Positions 32,595 to 43,065 of a stretch of 64,000 nt of DNA are shown piece after piece. Positions within the stretch are counted from its first letter, which is position 1. Each line of letters starts with the position of its first letter. Below the pieces are notes generated by a model. The model saw only the letters and a program-made list of their open reading frames with translations, did not search any database and was not told the origin of the DNA. The position numbers and the translations under genes are program-made. Source of the stretch: Shigella phage TB004; the sequence record MW822011. The stretch is one strand, 5' to 3'.

Positions 32595-33059
32595 TTGATA
32601 TGGAGATGGGACATGATTACAGTAGATAAGTGGTTTAGAATTAATCGTGCTGATAAAGGGCTGTGTAATTATTGGCCGGAACTTAGTGCAGGTACTGTCT
32701 TTAAAGTTCGTGAACTTGCAAAAGAATGTGAAGATGATATAGAACCTGATACTGGAATTATTGAAATTGAACTTTCTGACGGAAAGATTATTAACATCTA
32801 CGATAAACCAATTACATATTGGTGCTTGTGGAATACTGAATCAGTAGAAAACGGCGAAATTGAAGAAGTCGTAGAACGAGTTGATCAAGCTCTTCATAAA
32901 CCTAAAGCTGGATTTCAAGGTGAACGCATTTCATATGCATTAGCTAAATTAGCTGCACAAGAAAATAACGATGGCTATGAAGGAAATTTGATGCAAGCTG
33001 CAGCAGAATATATTGAATGGCTTGAAACTCAAATTTCTTTTTCTGAACGAGCATTTTAA
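32595..33059 (+). CDS. hypothetical protein (possibly protease inhibitor Pin; start uncertain)
   Basis: 154-aa ORF adjacent to gene 49; assignment by position only. Confidence 0.4.
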   Translation: MIWRWDMITVDKWFRINRADKGLCNYWPELSAGTVFKVRELAKECEDDIEPDTGIIEIELSDGKIINIYDKPITYWCLWNTESVENGEIEEVVERVDQALHKPKAGFQGERISYALAKLAAQENNDGYEGNLMQAAAEYIEWLETQISFSERAF

Positions 33060-33107
33060 TACTTGAAAATAATAAATACCCTTATCTATTTAAGGTAAGG
33101 GTTTATT

Positions 33108-33581
33108 ATGTTATTGACTGGCAAATTATACAAAGAAGAAAAACAGAAATTTTATGATGCACAAAACGGTAAATGCTTAATTTGCCAACGAGAACTAAAT
33201 CCTGATGTTCAAGCTAATCACCTTGACCATGACCATGAATTAAATGGACCAAAAGCAGGAAAGGTACGTGGGTTGCTATGTAATCTCTGCAATGCTGCAG
33301 AAGGTCAAATGAAACATAAATTTAATCGTTCTGGCTTAAAGGGACAAGGTGTTGATTATCTTGAATGGTTAGAAAATTTACTTACTTATTTAAAATCCGA
33401 TTACACCCAAAATAATATTCACCCTAACTTTGTTGGAGATAAATCAAAGGAATTTTCTCGTTTAGGAAAAGAGGAAATGATGGCTGAGATGCTTCAAAGA
33501 GGATTTGAATATAATGAATTTGACACTAAAACACAATTAATAGCTTCATTTAAGAAGCAGCTTAGAAAGAGTTTAAAATGA
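33108..33581 (+). CDS. 49: endonuclease VII (Holliday junction resolvase) gp49
   Basis: 157 aa, Cys/His zinc motif CLIC...HLDHDH...CNLCN; matches T4 Endo VII. Confidence 0.9.
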   Translation: MLLTGKLYKEEKQKFYDAQNGKCLICQRELNPDVQANHLDHDHELNGPKAGKVRGLLCNLCNAAEGQMKHKFNRSGLKGQGVDYLEWLENLLTYLKSDYTQNNIHPNFVGDKSKEFSRLGKEEMMAEMLQRGFEYNEFDTKTQLIASFKKQLRKSLK

Positions 33582-35395
33582 CAATTGAAAAAGAAATTGA
33601 AGGATTGATTCATAAAACTAATAAAGACCTTTTAAACGAGAATGCTAATAAAGATTCTCGTGTTTTTCCAACTCAACGGGACCTTATGGCTGGTATTGTG
33701 TCTAAGCACATTGCCAAAAATATGGTCCCGTCTTTTATTATGAAAGCACATGAAAGCGGAATCATTCACGTGCATGATATTGATTATTCTCCTGCTCTTC
33801 CGTTTACTAATTGCTGTTTAGTAGATTTAAAAGGAATGCTTGAAAACGGATTTAAATTAGGCAATGCACAGATTGAAACTCCTAAATCAATCGGTGTTGC
33901 TACTGCAATTATGGCACAAATTACTGCACAGGTTGCTTCCCATCAATACGGCGGAACGACTTTTGCGAATGTAGACAAAGTACTTTCTCCTTATGTTAAA
34001 CGCACCTATGCAAAACATATTGAAGATGCAGAAAAATGGCAAATCGCTGATGCGTTGAATTATGCCCAATCTAAAACAGAAAAAGACGTATACGATGCGT
34101 TCCAAGCTTATGAATATGAAGTAAATACTCTCTTTAGTTCAAACGGACAAACTCCTTTTGTAACAATTACATTTGGTACGGGAACTGACTGGACTGAACG
34201 AATGATTCAGAAAGCAATTCTGAAAAATCGCATTAAAGGTCTTGGCCGCGACGGGATAACTCCTATTTTCCCTAAACTTGTTATGTTTGTTGAAGAAGGT
34301 GTTAATCTTTATAAAGACGATCCGAACTATGATATTAAGCAGCTTGCTCTAGAGTGTGCAAGCAAAAGAATGTATCCTGATATTATTTCAGCTAAGAACA
34401 ATAAAGCTATCACCGGTTCATCTATTCCTGTTTCTCCAATGGGTTGCCGTAGTTTCTTGAGCGTATGGAAAGATTCGACTGGTAATGAAATTCTTGATGG
34501 ACGTAATAATCTTGGCGTTGTAACACTGAATCTTCCTCGTATTGCATTAGATTCTTATATTGGAACACAGTTCAATGAACAGAAATTTGCCGAATTGTTC
34601 AATGAACGAATGGATTTGTGTTTTGAAGCATTGATGTGTAGAATTAGTTCATTAAAAGGAGTTAAATCTACTGTTGCTCCTATTCTTTACCAAGAAGGTG
34701 CATTCGGGGTTCGTCTTAAACCCGATGATGATATAATTGAGTTATTTAAAAACGGTAGAAGTTCAGTATCCCTAGGATACATTGGTATTCACGAATTGAA
34801 TATTCTTGTCGGTCGTGATATTGGTCAGGAAATTTTAACTAAAATGAATGCACATCTTAAGCAGTGGACTGAAAGAACTGGTTTTGCTTTTAGCTTGTAT
34901 TCTACACCTGCTGAAAACCTGTGTTATCGCTTCTGTAAACTCGATACCGAAAAATATGGAAGTGTAAAGGATGTTACTGATAAAGGCTGGTACACTAACA
35001 GTTTCCATGTTTCAGTAGAAGAAAATATCACTCCGTTTGAAAAGATTTCTCGCGAAGCGCCATATCATTTCATTGCGACAGGTGGTCACATTTCTTATGT
35101 TGAACTTCCTGATATGAAAAATAACCTAAAGGGTCTTGAGGCTGTATGGGATTATGCTGCACAACATTTAGATTATTTTGGTGTTAATATGCCAGTAGAT
35201 AAATGTTTTACATGTGGAAGTACCCATGAAATGACTCCTACTGAAAACGGATTTGTTTGTTCTATTTGTGGAGAAACTGATCCTAAAAAGATGAACACAA
35301 TAAGAAGAACATGCGGATATTTGGGAAACCCGAACGAACGCGGATTTAATCTTGGTAAAAATAAAGAAATCATGCATAGGGTTAAACACCAATGA
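33578..35395 (+). CDS. nrdD: anaerobic ribonucleotide reductase NrdD (uninterrupted)
   Basis: 605 aa; C-terminal glycyl radical motif RRTCGYLGNP; no intron break. Confidence 0.9.
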   Translation: MTIEKEIEGLIHKTNKDLLNENANKDSRVFPTQRDLMAGIVSKHIAKNMVPSFIMKAHESGIIHVHDIDYSPALPFTNCCLVDLKGMLENGFKLGNAQIETPKSIGVATAIMAQITAQVASHQYGGTTFANVDKVLSPYVKRTYAKHIEDAEKWQIADALNYAQSKTEKDVYDAFQAYEYEVNTLFSSNGQTPFVTITFGTGTDWTERMIQKAILKNRIKGLGRDGITPIFPKLVMFVEEGVNLYKDDPNYDIKQLALECASKRMYPDIISAKNNKAITGSSIPVSPMGCRSFLSVWKDSTGNEILDGRNNLGVVTLNLPRIALDSYIGTQFNEQKFAELFNERMDLCFEALMCRISSLKGVKSTVAPILYQEGAFGVRLKPDDDIIELFKNGRSSVSLGYIGIHELNILVGRDIGQEILTKMNAHLKQWTERTGFAFSLYSTPAENLCYRFCKLDTEKYGSVKDVTDKGWYTNSFHVSVEENITPFEKISREAPYHFIATGGHISYVELPDMKNNLKGLEAVWDYAAQHLDYFGVNMPVDKCFTCGSTHEMTPTENGFVCSICGETDPKKMNTIRRTCGYLGNPNERGFNLGKNKEIMHRVKHQ

Positions 35396-36231
35396 ATTAC
35401 GATAGATTTTATCCCTGTGATTTTGTGAATGATAAATTAACTTTAATATTTGAAGAAAATAATGATTTATTATTGTCATATGTTGATTTGATAATAAAAA
35501 ATTATAATAATCCTAAAATAAAGGGGAAAACGGAAGCACATCACGTGCTTCCCAAATCTATATTTCCTGAATATAAAACAGATAAATGGAATATTGTTAA
35601 TTTGTCATATTATGACCATGCATTGGCTCATTACTATTTAGCTAAAACAAGTAATAGTAAAATGTGTTATGCCTTTCATAGAATGATAAACTCGAATACT
35701 GATAGATTTAATACTGATGAATTGGATGAAATTTTTAAATTGTATTCCAAAGAAAGGGAATTATTTCACCGCTCTATGTCAAAATTATCGAAAAATATAT
35801 GGAAAGATGACGATTTTAGAAAAAGACATAGCGAACTAACTAAGTTAGCAATGCAAAAACCTGAAGTTAGAAATAAAACTTTATTAAATTTGTCAAATGC
35901 AATGAAAACTGATAAAGTTAGAAATAAAATTTCAAGGCTAACTAAGTTAGCAATGCAAAAACCTGAAGTAAAAGAAAAACATAGAAATTCATTAAAGCTG
36001 GCGTATGCAAATCCTGAGGTTATGAAAAGGAAACATCAGCGTCTTCGAGAAAAATATACTCTTAATTTATTTGGCGCATATAAAGATGGTGTTCTTTTAA
36101 AAACATTTAATTATATACCAGACGCAGCAAAATATTTTAATATTTCTAGCAAAGGAAATATTTTAAAATGTTTAAATGGCGAACGTAAAAGTGTTGAAGG
36201 CTATAATTGGAAATATATAAATGAATTATGA
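35392..36231 (+). mobile_element. HNH homing endonuclease gene between nrdD and nrdG
   Basis: HNH motif EAHHVLP...N...HALAH, repeated KLAMQKPEV (NUMOD3-like), C-terminal GYNWKY; start resembles nrdG start. Confidence 0.7.
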
Positions 36232-36691
36232 CAGAATATATCCGTGTTGCTTTGTTAATGGTCCTGGGTGCCGAACTGTTCTTTTCGTTACGGGGTGTTT
36301 GCATAAATGTGAAGGATGTTATAATAAATCAACATGGAATGCTAGAAATGGCGTTCCATTCACTGGTGAAACACTGGAACAATTAATTGAATGTTTGAAT
36401 AATGATTATATAGAAGGATTAACTATAACTGGAGGAGACCCTCTCTATCCTGATAACCGAGATGTTATTCATTGCATCGTTCAAACAGTAAAAAATCTTT
36501 ATCCCAATAAAAGCATTTGGTTGTGGACAGGATACAAGTTTGAAGATATTAAACAACTAGAAATGCTTAAATATGTTGATGTTATTATTGATGGGAAGTA
36601 TGAGAAAAATCTTCCGACCAAAAAGCTGTGGCGAGGTTCAGATAATCAGCGACTTTGGTCAAATACCGATGGGGTGTGGAAACATGATTAA
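36221..36691 (+). CDS. nrdG: anaerobic RNR activating enzyme NrdG
   Basis: 156 aa, radical-SAM C-x3-C-x2-C (CLHKCEGC). Confidence 0.88.
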   Translation: MNYDRIYPCCFVNGPGCRTVLFVTGCLHKCEGCYNKSTWNARNGVPFTGETLEQLIECLNNDYIEGLTITGGDPLYPDNRDVIHCIVQTVKNLYPNKSIWLWTGYKFEDIKQLEMLKYVDVIIDGKYEKNLPTKKLWRGSDNQRLWSNTDGVWKHD

Positions 36692-36805
36692 ATTGAATTA
36701 TATTATGGACACTATAAATGATATGATTTTTCATTTTGGTCCAGAATTTTATTCGCAGTATAGTTTAGTACTTATCAATGCTTGGTTAATCAATTAAGGG
36801 TAAAT

Positions 36806-37021
36806 ATGTATAAATTTCGTAAAGGTTTAGCTGATTTTCTTACAACCGTAACGTTCTTTTTGTTTATGGCAGTTGGTGCTATTTTTCTTATTCCTTTTAT
36901 TGCTATATTTTTCGTGATTAGCTTAATTTCTCCAGAAAAAGGCTTATCTTCTAGCGAATTCAATGAGCGTCTGGATAAAATTACTAACAAGCTGAATTCT
37001 GTTCTTGATAAAAAGGCTTAA
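36806..37021 (+). CDS. small membrane protein
   Basis: 71 aa, central TM helix. Confidence 0.4.
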   Translation: MYKFRKGLADFLTTVTFFLFMAVGAIFLIPFIAIFFVISLISPEKGLSSSEFNERLDKITNKLNSVLDKKA

Positions 37022-37023
37022 TT

Positions 37024-37335
37024 ATGATTAGTTTTGAGCAGTATGTGGTAGAGAGTTGGAAAGGTTTTGATATGTTCGGTAATGACTATTATTTCTATGA
37101 ATGTAGTCTAAATCCTAGTTTTTGGGCTGGACGTGAACGAGAACTCGAAGAAATTAATAACCGTGCTGAATTGTTAGGTGAATTACCTACGGTTTATTTT
37201 ACCTTTGATGCATCTGGATTTGTTATCCAGGTTTATTTTCCTGAAGAAAATTCTGGCGATGATTCTGTTAACCCGCCATACTGGGCTTATCAAGGAATTA
37301 TTTCTCGTGGAACAAAACTCGAACTTAAAGAATAA
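37024..37335 (+). CDS. hypothetical protein
   Basis: 103 aa. Confidence 0.45.
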   Translation: MISFEQYVVESWKGFDMFGNDYYFYECSLNPSFWAGRERELEEINNRAELLGELPTVYFTFDASGFVIQVYFPEENSGDDSVNPPYWAYQGIISRGTKLELKE

Positions 37336-41009: not shown

Positions 41010-41804
41010 ATGAATTATTTAAATATATATAATTTACTGATAGAAAAAGGACTAAACAGAGGCAATGATAAAAGTCTTTTGACATACTATACTGAAACTC
41101 ATCATATAATTCCTAGATGTATGGGTGGTACAGATGATAAAACTAATTTAGTTCTTTTGACACCAGAAGAACATTTTACCGCGCATTTATTATTATTTAA
41201 AATTTATAGACTTCCTAAATTGGCTTTAGCTATTCGTATGATGTGTTATAGTTCTGACGGAACAAGACTAAATAATAAAATGTATGGATGGATTAAAACA
41301 GCTGTATCTTCCTCAATATCGGAAGGCATGAAAGAGTTCTGGAAAGATGATGATAATAAAAAATACATGTCTAACGCTAGACGAAATGCTGGAAAACCAA
41401 TTTATCAATATGATTTAAATGGAAATTTTATTCGCAAATATAGATGTATTACAGATGCTGCAGAAGATATGTCATATAGCTGTTCAAGTTCAATTAAACA
41501 ATGTGTAGATGGGAAAAGGAAAACCGCTGGAGGATTTCAATGGAAATATTATTATTCTGATAACATAGGAAAGCCCTCTAGGATGTCTAATGCAACTAAA
41601 CAAAAAATGTCTAAATCTAAACGTGGGATAACTCAGAAAAGAAATGTGCCAGTATTTCAATATGATACTACTGGAAAATTATTACGAGTATTTCCTAAAA
41701 TTAAAGACGCAGCTGTATCCGTTAAAGGATGCATGTCTAATATTAAAAAGTGCATATCTGGAAAAAGCAAAATTGCTTATGGATATGTTTGGGCCTATTC
41801 GTAG
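41010..41804 (+). mobile_element. HNH homing endonuclease gene (Mob-like)
   Basis: HNH motif ETHHIIPRCMGG...NLVLL...HFTAH; repeated PIYQYD/VFQYD NUMOD-like modules. Confidence 0.65.
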
Positions 41805-41862
41805 TGTTTTATAGAAAATAAAATATTATTTACATGATTTATTGAATGAAAAGAGGAAAACT

Positions 41863-43065
41863 ATGCGTATTTGCATTTTTATGGCTCGGGGTCTTGAAGG
41901 TTGCGGTGTAACTAAATTTTCTCTTGAGCAACGTGATTGGTTCATTAAAAATGGCCATGAAGTAACTCTGGTTTATGCTAAAGATAAATCATTTACTCGT
42001 ACAAGTTCTCATGACCACAAATCATTTTCAATTCCAGTTATTTTAGCTAAAGAATACGATAAAGCACTTAAACTGATTAATGATTGTGATATTCTAATTA
42101 TTAATTCTGTTCCTGCTAATTCCGTTCAAGAAGCTACGATTAATAACTATAAAAAACTTTTAGATAATATTAAACCTTCTATTCGTGTTGTAGTTTATCA
42201 GCATGATCATTCTGTTCTTTCTTTGCGTCGAAATTCGGGATTAGAAGAAACTGTTCGTCGAGCTGATGTTATTTTTAGCCATTCTGATAATGGTGATTTT
42301 AATAAAGTTCTGATGAAAGAGTGGTATCCAGAAACTGTTTCTCTGTTTGATGATATTGAAGAAGCACCGACAGTATATAACTTTCAGCCTCCTATGGATA
42401 TTGCGAAGGTTCGGTCAACTTATTGGAAAGATGTTTCTGAAATTAACATGAATATCAACCGTTGGATTGGTCGTACTACTACATGGAAAGGATTTTATCA
42501 GATGTTTGATTTTCACGAAAAACATCTTAAACCTGCTGGTAGATCCACTGTAATGGAAGGTCTTGAACGTTCCCCTGCTTTTATTGCAATTAAGGAAAAA
42601 GGTATTCCGTATGAATATTACGGTAATCGTGAGATTGATAAAATGAATCTCACGCCGAATCAACCGGCACAAATCCTAGATTGTTATATTAATAGCGAAA
42701 TGCTTGAACGAATGAGTAAATCTGGCTTTGGATATCAGTTGAGTAAACTTAACCAGAAATACTTACAACGCTCACTCGAATATACTCATCTTGAATTAGG
42801 CGCTTGTGGTACAATTCCTGTTTTCTGGAAATCTACTGGCGAAAATTTAAAATTCCGTGTTGATAATACTCCTTTGACCTCGCATGATAGCGGTATCATT
42901 TGGTTTGATGAAAATGACATGGAATCAACATTTGAACGTATTAAAGAATTGTCATCTGACCGAGCTCTTTATGACCGTGAGCGAGAAAAAGCGTATGAAT
43001 TTTTGTATCAGCATCAAGATTCAAGCTTCTGCTTTAAAGAACAGTTTGACATTATTACAAAATAA
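41863..43065 (+). CDS. agt: DNA alpha-glucosyltransferase
   Basis: 400 aa starting MRICIFMARGLEGCGVTKF; matches recalled T4 AGT. Confidence 0.85.
   Translation: MRICIFMARGLEGCGVTKFSLEQRDWFIKNGHEVTLVYAKDKSFTRTSSHDHKSFSIPVILAKEYDKALKLINDCDILIINSVPANSVQEATINNYKKLLDNIKPSIRVVVYQHDHSVLSLRRNSGLEETVRRADVIFSHSDNGDFNKVLMKEWYPETVSLFDDIEEAPTVYNFQPPMDIAKVRSTYWKDVSEINMNINRWIGRTTTWKGFYQMFDFHEKHLKPAGRSTVMEGLERSPAFIAIKEKGIPYEYYGNREIDKMNLTPNQPAQILDCYINSEMLERMSKSGFGYQLSKLNQKYLQRSLEYTHLELGACGTIPVFWKSTGENLKFRVDNTPLTSHDSGIIWFDENDMESTFERIKELSSDRALYDREREKAYEFLYQHQDSSFCFKEQFDIITK

Follow-up and report, generated by a model that had tools for sequence, protein, structure and literature searches.

A predicted HNH homing-endonuclease cassette in the 5' end of nrdG of a T4-like Shigella phage, with a captured start codon and a re-coded replacement

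Introduction

Insights into an unusual insertion at the junction of nrdD and nrdG, which encode the large subunit of the anaerobic ribonucleotide reductase and its activase, were obtained from a 64,000-nucleotide stretch of Shigella phage TB004 (record MW822011), referred to here as the window. The source is a Tequatrovirus (T4-like) phage, and the nearest record, Escherichia phage Ec_MI-02, shows 98.2% identity across positions 34900-36700. We consider it likely that the junction harbours a mobile HNH (mob-type) homing-endonuclease cassette which is lodged in the 5' end of nrdG, has captured the nrdG start codon and supplies a re-coded nrdG start in its place. The structural conclusions are firm, and from these sequence comparisons we infer cleavage, a target site, immunity and translational coupling.

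An original prediction, made from the window sequence, had placed an HNH homing-endonuclease gene between nrdD and nrdG and had interpreted the resemblance between the starts of the endonuclease gene and nrdG as the footprint of a target-site duplication. Its observations were borne out, while its interpretation of the repeats was not.

The Insertion Breakpoint and its Two Repeats

The first 40 nucleotides (nt) of the endonuclease open reading frame (ORF) match those of nrdG at 31 positions (77.5%), with similarity falling to random levels both upstream of the ATG and beyond nt 40, and, as originally noted, both proteins begin MNYDR(F/I)YPC. A 40-mer scan of both strands of the window yielded a 31/40 match solely at position 36221, with a runner-up of 25/40, and by a binomial estimate only 1.6e-5 matches of at least 31/40 are expected in the window, which excludes a similarity no better than chance and confirms that the nrdG 5' end is truly duplicated. 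We denote the copy that opens the endonuclease ORF DR-L and the copy that opens nrdG DR-R.

The comparison with an insert-free junction, which had been suggested earlier, was provided by Shigella phage CT01 where nrdG directly follows nrdD. DR-L is identical to nt 1-40 of CT01 nrdG (40/40), the sequences diverging exactly after GTGAATG, and leftward from this junction 75 nt are shared without a mismatch. The CT01 nrdG start matches DR-R, the window's own nrdG start, at only 31/40 positions; seven further mismatches fall at nt 42-57 and then just three, at nt 144, 156 and 159, occur before the stop codon, such that identity is about 99% thereafter. The flanks in CT01 are 97% (left 300 nt) and 99% (nrdG nt 101-471) identical to the window, and megablast alignments skip exactly the cassette, with empty sites spanning 972 nt against 1801 nt of the query.

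An independent view of the breakpoint came from Klebsiella phages of the genus Jiaodavirus, such as Roth04, which carry the same endonuclease with 87% amino acid (aa) identity to the window copy. An additional small gene stands between nrdD and the element in these phages; the nrdG breakpoint is nonetheless unchanged. The first 40 nt of the Roth04 endonuclease (MNFDRIYPSDFVN) are identical, at 40/40 positions, to nrdG of the insert-free Klebsiella-type loci L022 and L031; this left repeat retains the lineage-specific residues F3 and S9, as in L022, and breaks off at the same nucleotide. The downstream nrdG of Roth04, which begins MNYDRIYPCCFVNG, matches the local allele at 30/40 positions and the DR-R of the window at 36/40, its ten differences from local nrdG including those underlying Y3, C9 and C10. 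Between the two genera, the first 14 nrdG codons are identical in amino acids and, over the rest of nrdG, 23% of non-synonymous sites differ.

Thus the two flanking repeats were not both copied from the recipient target: DR-L is local and DR-R is foreign. Since DR-L equals the local nrdG and DR-R is closer across genera than to the local allele, these alignments argue firmly for a left repeat that belongs to the recipient's nrdG and a right repeat that arrived together with the endonuclease gene. The inserted block starts exactly after nrdG nt 40 (Table 1), and its replacement copy rebuilds a full-length nrdG. The earlier placement of the gene between nrdD and nrdG needs qualification, since the inserted DNA itself begins within nrdG. 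Nor does the ORF lie within a self-splicing intron: no Rfam match was found and nrdG is rebuilt by duplication, not by splicing.

The Endonuclease Protein

Among PHROG families, the protein matches 655 ('homing endonuclease', E=1.1e-36) and 12434 ('HNH endonuclease', E=9e-15). When it is aligned with T4 MobC and seven homologues or relatives from databases (alignment A1), residues E48, H50, H51, P54, S56, N67, L71, H76, A79 and H80 are invariant, which rules out a loss of the HNH residues and upholds the original family assignment. The A1 profile aligned the HNH stretch to McrA 6ghc (E=0.0085), pyocin AP41 DNase and Cas8f-HNH, and two of the aligned homologues match the Pfam HNH family PF01844 directly (E=3.2e-6). 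The element is accordingly predicted to be an HNH (mob-type) homing endonuclease gene.

Towards the C-terminus, residues 235-272 of the protein alone matched PF22083 (E=2.4e-4) and NUMOD1 PF07453 (E=5.3e-3), both below the gathering cut-offs, and PF22083 was also matched by 6/9 aligned homologues. A GerD match of the same Pfam search was rejected as spurious, and a single-sequence search against the PDB returned nothing relevant. The two internal 32-nt repeats each encode LTKLAMQKPEV within a basic helical repeat region that is possibly NUMOD3-like, though the protein gives no NUMOD3 match. The AlphaFold2 (AF2) model, with a predicted local distance difference test (pLDDT) score of 70, shows two strands (residues 47-51 and 68-72) and then a helix (73-84), an arrangement consistent with a beta-beta-alpha fold, as well as helices through residues 108-223.

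The ORF is chimeric, with 13 NrdG residues preceding the endonuclease body. The model has low confidence over residues 1-10 (mean pLDDT 46, and under 50 for residues 1-5), and its first helix begins at residue 11. The first internal in-frame ATG is codon 91, beyond the HNH motif, and paralogues carry unrelated residues ahead of a shared 'KL' at positions 15-16; these two properties lead us to regard the 13 NrdG residues as a borrowed leader which, to judge from the reading frame, supplies the initiation codon.

Transfer, Selection and Distribution

Comparison of the window with Roth04 yielded a number of synonymous substitutions per synonymous site (dS) of 0.89 for the endonuclease gene, with a corresponding non-synonymous value (dN) of 0.064 and a dN/dS of 0.07, the HNH region alone giving 0.075. 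For nrdD, dS was 2.6 and dN 0.17, for nrdG 3.2 and 0.25, and for gene 49 dS was saturated with a dN of 0.25. Since dS for the endonuclease gene is far below that of the flanking genes, it has been transferred horizontally between the two genera after their divergence, with DR-R travelling along with it, and the dN/dS values indicate that it is under purifying selection.

The gene was found in 31 of about 850 phage records with this locus, in two genera (Tequatrovirus and Jiaodavirus), and the carrier records are already annotated in GenBank as 'mobC' or 'homing endonuclease'. The cassette is absent from the near-identical CT01 and from most relatives, and the site occurs in at least three other states: empty, with segH and with T4 mobC. 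IMG/VR contained insert-free loci only, with no copy of the endonuclease gene and no Cys10 nrdG allele (see below). Among more distant phages whose nrdD and nrdG lie 1.3-2.9 kb apart, no second NrdG-like N-terminus was seen. In UTI-K1 (L049, 561-1397) the endonuclease bears the label 'ribonucleotide reductase class III activating protein', to which its NrdG-derived N-terminus has probably given rise, and in BF15 the endonuclease coding sequence (CDS) has been called in truncated form.

The Re-coded nrdG Start

DR-R carries a signature consisting of C12, A16, A18, G24 and TGC at nt 28-30, which includes a change of GAT to TGC (D10C). Codon 10 of the downstream nrdG is TGC in all 14 cassette genomes read (nine of Tequatrovirus, including the window, and five of Klebsiella phages), while the left repeat keeps GAT or GAC. 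Asp10 is present in 28/28 insert-free loci read (27 from IMG/VR and CT01) and in T4, and it holds even in NrdGs which are merely 55-60% identical. Among Tequatrovirus nrdG genes, carriers and empty sites are separated only at nt 12, 16/18, 24 and 28-30, and polymorphisms further downstream are mosaically shared between the two groups. We infer that the signature would block cleavage of the rebuilt nrdG.

Similar nrdG starts occur next to segH. The segH-linked nrdG also begins MNYDRIYPCCFVNG, and that of PP01 matches the DR-R of the window at 37/40 positions. When metagenomes were scanned for the Cys10 pattern, a single contig was recovered, and it was of the segH type. In the segH phages the 3' end of nrdD is itself re-coded (...TPSVVPWNLGKMKEMVKRVKHA against ...NPNERGFNLGKNKEIMHRVKHQ), which is not the case in the window. 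The first 9 nt of the SegH gene, ATGCATAGG, are identical to ordinary nrdD codons 599-601 (MHR).

Proposed Mechanism and Alternative Explanations

According to the mechanism that we favour, the endonuclease, whose reading frame opens at the resident nrdG ATG and runs through 13 NrdG codons, would recognise a site in ordinary nrdG spanning the nt-40 junction. In mixed infections the empty allele would be nicked or cut, and recombinational repair would copy the cassette in. The left copy would then be immune because the 3' half of the site has been replaced by the cassette, and the right copy because the 5' half has been re-coded, while the nine mismatches between the repeats would slow cassette loss by repeat recombination. 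Translation probably runs from nrdD through the endonuclease gene to nrdG by coupling at both overlaps.

Several observations weigh against this mechanism, in particular the occurrence of the signature outside the cassette. The segH phages PP01 (L053) and RB3 (L054; 690-1520 in both) and the metagenome contig (L055) have the same Cys10 nrdG 5' end, that of PP01 matching the DR-R of PST at 39/40 positions. Moreover, a chimeric query, in which an ordinary nrdD 3' end was joined straight to a Cys10 nrdG, detected three empty junctions with the signature, in ESh24 (L056), ERS-1 (L057) and U5 (L058), with nrdG starting at 733; no further record that covered the greater part of the query exceeded 90.7% identity. 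These phages carry the signature without an endonuclease gene, so a D10C NrdG must be viable on its own. U5 is identical to the cassette-bearing AndreasVesalius over 75/75 nt from the nrdG ATG, and AndreasVesalius is nearest, by a few nt, to the flanks of the U5 and ESh24 empty sites, which is weakly suggestive of cassette loss; U5, ESh24 and ERS-1 are candidates either for empty alleles with resistance or for sites that lost the cassette through repeat-mediated recombination. The 14/14 count also overstates independence, because the cassette genomes constitute only two lineages. As the signature is found both beside segH and at these empty sites, it could reflect SegH immunity or a hitch-hiking allele; it may also confer immunity to the HNH enzyme, or to both, or be a module passed between cassettes. 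That the layout is correct but the D10C signature is a SegH-resistant variant, acquired when the HNH cassette arose in, or recombined with, a genome of the segH type, or a hitch-hiking donor allele, with the HNH target lying elsewhere, we consider unlikely on balance, though of appreciable weight. A search for a DNA-binding module shared by the HNH protein and SegH found no significant similarity (E=0.53), such that a common target is not implied. Set against this alternative are the T6 gene-46 cassette, which has the same pattern with no seg gene involved (see below), the retention of the signature in the Klebsiella-phage copies after a dS of about 0.9, and the otherwise invariant Asp10, which makes a neutral origin of the signature unlikely. 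Further points against the favoured mechanism concern the enzyme. With the 279-aa protein alone no Pfam HNH model was reached, a Foldseek search of the whole AF2 model gave nothing in the PDB at E<0.5, which carries little weight for an elongated, multi-domain model with a pLDDT of 70, and the endonuclease copies of BF15 (L047, 561-1401) and KP01 (L051, 561-1388) are frameshifted, so activity is not universally maintained. For its locus-mate T4 MobC, the review by Edgell (PMC2988022) gives 'ND, target unknown', and, mobE apart, activity has been demonstrated for none of the T4 mob genes. The gene might then be a resident relic that no longer works as a homing endonuclease, kept because nrdG is translated through it or co-opted for marker exclusion or regulation, and the lack of an obvious ribosome-binding site for nrdG upstream of its start at 36221 would fit with this; but the low dN/dS of the whole protein and of the HNH region, the invariant catalytic residues, and a synonymous divergence far below that of the flanks, showing transfer between genera, render a relic quite improbable.

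Two further explanations concern the repeats themselves. In a classical target-site duplication, each insertion would copy about 40 nt of the recipient nrdG and the copies would subsequently drift, and direct repeats which are 31/40 identical do flank the insert. HNH enzymes are not known to make staggered cuts of 40 nt, and the Roth04 DR-R departs at 10/40 positions from the local nrdG but agrees at 36/40 with that of Escherichia phages. One and the same signature, moreover, occurs in all of the cassette genomes read and also beside the unrelated segH gene, which has no such repeat. The footprint interpretation of the original prediction is contradicted on both counts, by a right copy that was imported and by a signature that recurs, and we now hold it to be very improbable. 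A chance or family resemblance would require no duplication, Mob proteins often starting MNY..IY; MobB at 41010 starts MNYLNIYNLL, and T4 MobC matches nrdG at only 19/21 nt. For this gene, the sharp breakpoint, the complete identity (40/40) that two lineages each show with their insert-free allele and the minute number of matches expected in the window leave this explanation with a negligible likelihood.

Gene Layout of the nrdD-nrdG Region

The features of the region are summarised in Table 1. The overlaps described originally are present: the endonuclease ATG overlaps the nrdD stop codon as ATGA (35392-35395) and its stop overlaps the nrdG start by 11 nt (36221-36231). A scan for sigma-70 promoters and terminators gave results no better than those for shuffled sequence.

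Table 1. Features of the nrdD-nrdG region of Shigella phage TB004; positions are those of the window.
Feature	Position	Strand	Basis or remark
Gene 49, endonuclease VII	33108-33581	+	ORF list, Pfam
nrdD (605 aa, intronless), large subunit of the anaerobic ribonucleotide reductase	33578-35395	+	ORF; Pfam NRDD
HNH homing endonuclease ORF (predicted), 279 aa	35392-36231	+	ORF; PHROG 655; 'mobC' label in Yersinia phage PST
Left repeat DR-L, resident nrdG nt 1-40, ATG plus 13 codons, MNYDRFYPCDFVN	35392-35431	+	
Imported cassette (as deduced), 829 bp: endonuclease body from codon 14 plus replacement nrdG 5' end	35432-36260	+	
HNH catalytic core (E48 H50 H51 ... N67 ... H76 A79 H80)	35533-35631	+	alignment A1
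Internal direct repeats, two exact 32-nt copies	35836-35867 and 35938-35969	+	
C-terminal NUMOD1 / I-HmuI-like helix-turn-helix DNA-binding domain, predicted, residues 235-272	36094-36207	+	
DR-R, the right repeat, which the cassette brings to replace nrdG nt 1-40	36221-36260	+	31/40 to DR-L
nrdG, radical-SAM activase of NrdD, 156 aa, intact	36221-36691	+	Pfam Fer4_12 E=2.9e-48
nrdG codon 10, TGC (Cys) replacing conserved GAT/GAC (Asp)	36248-36250	+	

The original statement that nrdD is one continuous, intronless ORF also stands. The Pfam NRDD family was matched end to end (1-562 of 562, E=3.5e-171), and the gene is uninterrupted at the site of the I-TevII intron of PST (after nrdD nt 536-538, window about 34114). 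An Rfam search of 33000-37200 gave no family at E<=1 and, therefore, no group I intron is placed there. The nrdD genes of T4, PST and U5 are intron-bearing, whereas all others inspected are single, uninterrupted CDSs of about 1.8 kb; for this reason the intronless nrdD of the window is ordinary and unremarkable. The flanks of the intron site (34105-34140, + strand) show about seven differences within 30 nt from the exon flanks of the intron-bearing PST, all of them synonymous, with EYEVNTLF being kept, and these could influence sensitivity to I-TevII.

Parallel Cases and Related Genes

The nearest paralogue family, with 34-39% identity, lies directly upstream of gene 46 in phage T6. There, the paralogous HNH ORF (L059, 1369-2223) starts on gene 46 sequence, namely the resident GTG and first 18 nt of that gene, and T6 is identical to T4, which is empty at this position (L060), over 48/48 nt at that start, upstream sequence included. 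Gene 46 of T6 restarts at 2239 with ATG AAA TCA TTT AAA CTT in place of GTG AAG AAT TTT AAA CTT, a re-coding (N3S) that gives MKSFKL for VKNFKL and alters an entire codon lying 9-17 nt upstream of where the cassette is inserted. Gene 46 of the window (start 44705, + strand) is an empty, ordinary allele.

In T4 mobC, 19 of the first 21 nt match nrdG, a case which taken alone is ambiguous because MobB also starts MNYLNIY. The window carries a second HNH mob-type gene of this kind at 41010-41804 (+ strand), encoding 264 aa with 27% identity to the nrdG-locus endonuclease, at the T4 mobB position just upstream of the alpha-glucosyltransferase gene (41842-43065). An environmental homologue, P0004 (259 aa, 244-1023), was found on a contig from Logan SRR6474914 (L061), where the next gene, at 1025, has the same first 11 nt (ATGAAAGATTT). 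That gene looks like an exonuclease gene, and P0004 may represent another start capture, 11 nt being too short for certainty.

Judged by these alignments, this HNH subfamily seems to make a habit of the start-capture layout, of which four instances were seen: nrdG (40 nt), T6 gene 46 (18 nt), T4 mobC (about 21 nt) and the environmental homologue (11 nt). We propose tentatively, and at somewhat less than an even chance, that start-codon capture is a general strategy of the subfamily, whereby cassettes lacking a start codon of their own would insert themselves a few codons into a conserved host gene and usurp its start and its translational coupling, while a re-coded 5' end would both rebuild the gene and immunise it. 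The leader would then constitute a portable module which unrelated endonuclease genes, such as this HNH gene and the GIY-YIG gene segH, could share or exchange, and which could persist alone as a resistant empty allele, as in U5, ESh24 and ERS-1.

Significance

The element is not a new kind, both the gene type and the locus being known already, and therefore the value of these results is incremental. Knowledge of the mobC locus goes back more than 20 years, with HNH genes residing there without a shown cleavage activity or target (PMC2988022). The anatomy of the insertion predicts a target spanning nt 40 of ordinary nrdG, with the nt 12-30 signature, including D10C, as the predicted resistant allele. 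A natural allelic series is available among sequenced phages, some of them kept in public collections, which comprises susceptible and empty alleles (CT01 and WilhelmHis), invaded alleles (AndreasVesalius, Paracelsus, TadeuszReichstein and PST) and resistant-looking, empty alleles (U5 and ESh24). The layout illustrates how a locus without intergenic space, nrdD and nrdG overlapping, can be entered by a selfish gene that leaves the host gene unharmed, and it explains annotation errors such as the NrdG activase label in UTI-K1 and the truncated CDS in BF15.

Comparison with Known Systems

At this locus segH, which encodes a GIY-YIG homing endonuclease, replaces mobC in RB3, PP01 and others, as reported in the 2005 study of Sandegren, Nord and Sjoberg; that study aside, no description of the present layout was found in the searchable literature. 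The segH arrangement resembles that of the window in its location and in the re-coded 5' end of the downstream nrdG, but the nuclease family is unrelated and SegH has its own start (MHRYY...), with no nrdG-derived N-terminus.

The T4 mobC/segH locus is a known hotspot, in which mobC is a free-standing HNH gene between nrdD and nrdG (Miller 2003; Edgell 2010, PMC2988022). T4 mobC has the same orientation as the window gene and likewise overlaps its neighbours, by 4 nt at the nrdD stop and by 11 nt at the nrdG start, and its product shares PHROG 655, the C-terminal ...G-Y-x-W-K-Y-x-x-E-L ending and an NrdG-like MNYDRIY start. It differs in that only about 21 nt (19/21), not 40, are common with nrdG and that the downstream T4 nrdG keeps Asp10. 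Since BLASTP aligned only a 60-aa HNH core of T4 MobC (NP_049689), at 38% identity, and the proteins are 210 and 279 aa long, the window endonuclease is not a MobC orthologue, despite the 'mobC' label in PST.

HNH mob-type cassettes lying within conserved coding sequence also include MobA with the gene 60 bypass cassette of T4 and mobE in nrdA of Aeromonas phage Aeh1, which carry additional sequence that preserves host function and disrupts the target site (Bonocora 2011 PNAS and Friedrich 2007 PNAS, as cited in bioRxiv 10.1101/2022.08.31.505936). In those cases the host gene is split or needs ribosomal bypass, whereas nrdG is rebuilt whole and its start codon captured. Free-standing homing endonuclease genes of fungal mitochondria, associated with partly duplicated C-termini of atp6 and cob (PMC6279837), similarly combine an endonuclease gene at the end of a conserved gene with a duplicated terminal segment, but they are mitochondrial, located at 3' ends and of the GIY-YIG or LAGLIDADG families, whereas the present case concerns a 5' end, a phage, an HNH protein and an in-frame start capture.

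The mechanism proposed here matches intronless homing by T4 SegF, SegG and MobE, in which the endonuclease-less allele is cut in a conserved neighbouring gene and repaired by recombination, with co-conversion of the flanks and protective polymorphisms in the genome of the carrier (PMC2988022; PMC2790892). Those genes occupy intergenic gaps and their products cut nearby, while here the insertion lies inside an ORF and the putative protective polymorphisms form part of the mobile block. The nrdG cassette stands apart in lying at a 5' end, in having captured the start codon of its host gene and in a re-coded leader common to two nuclease families.

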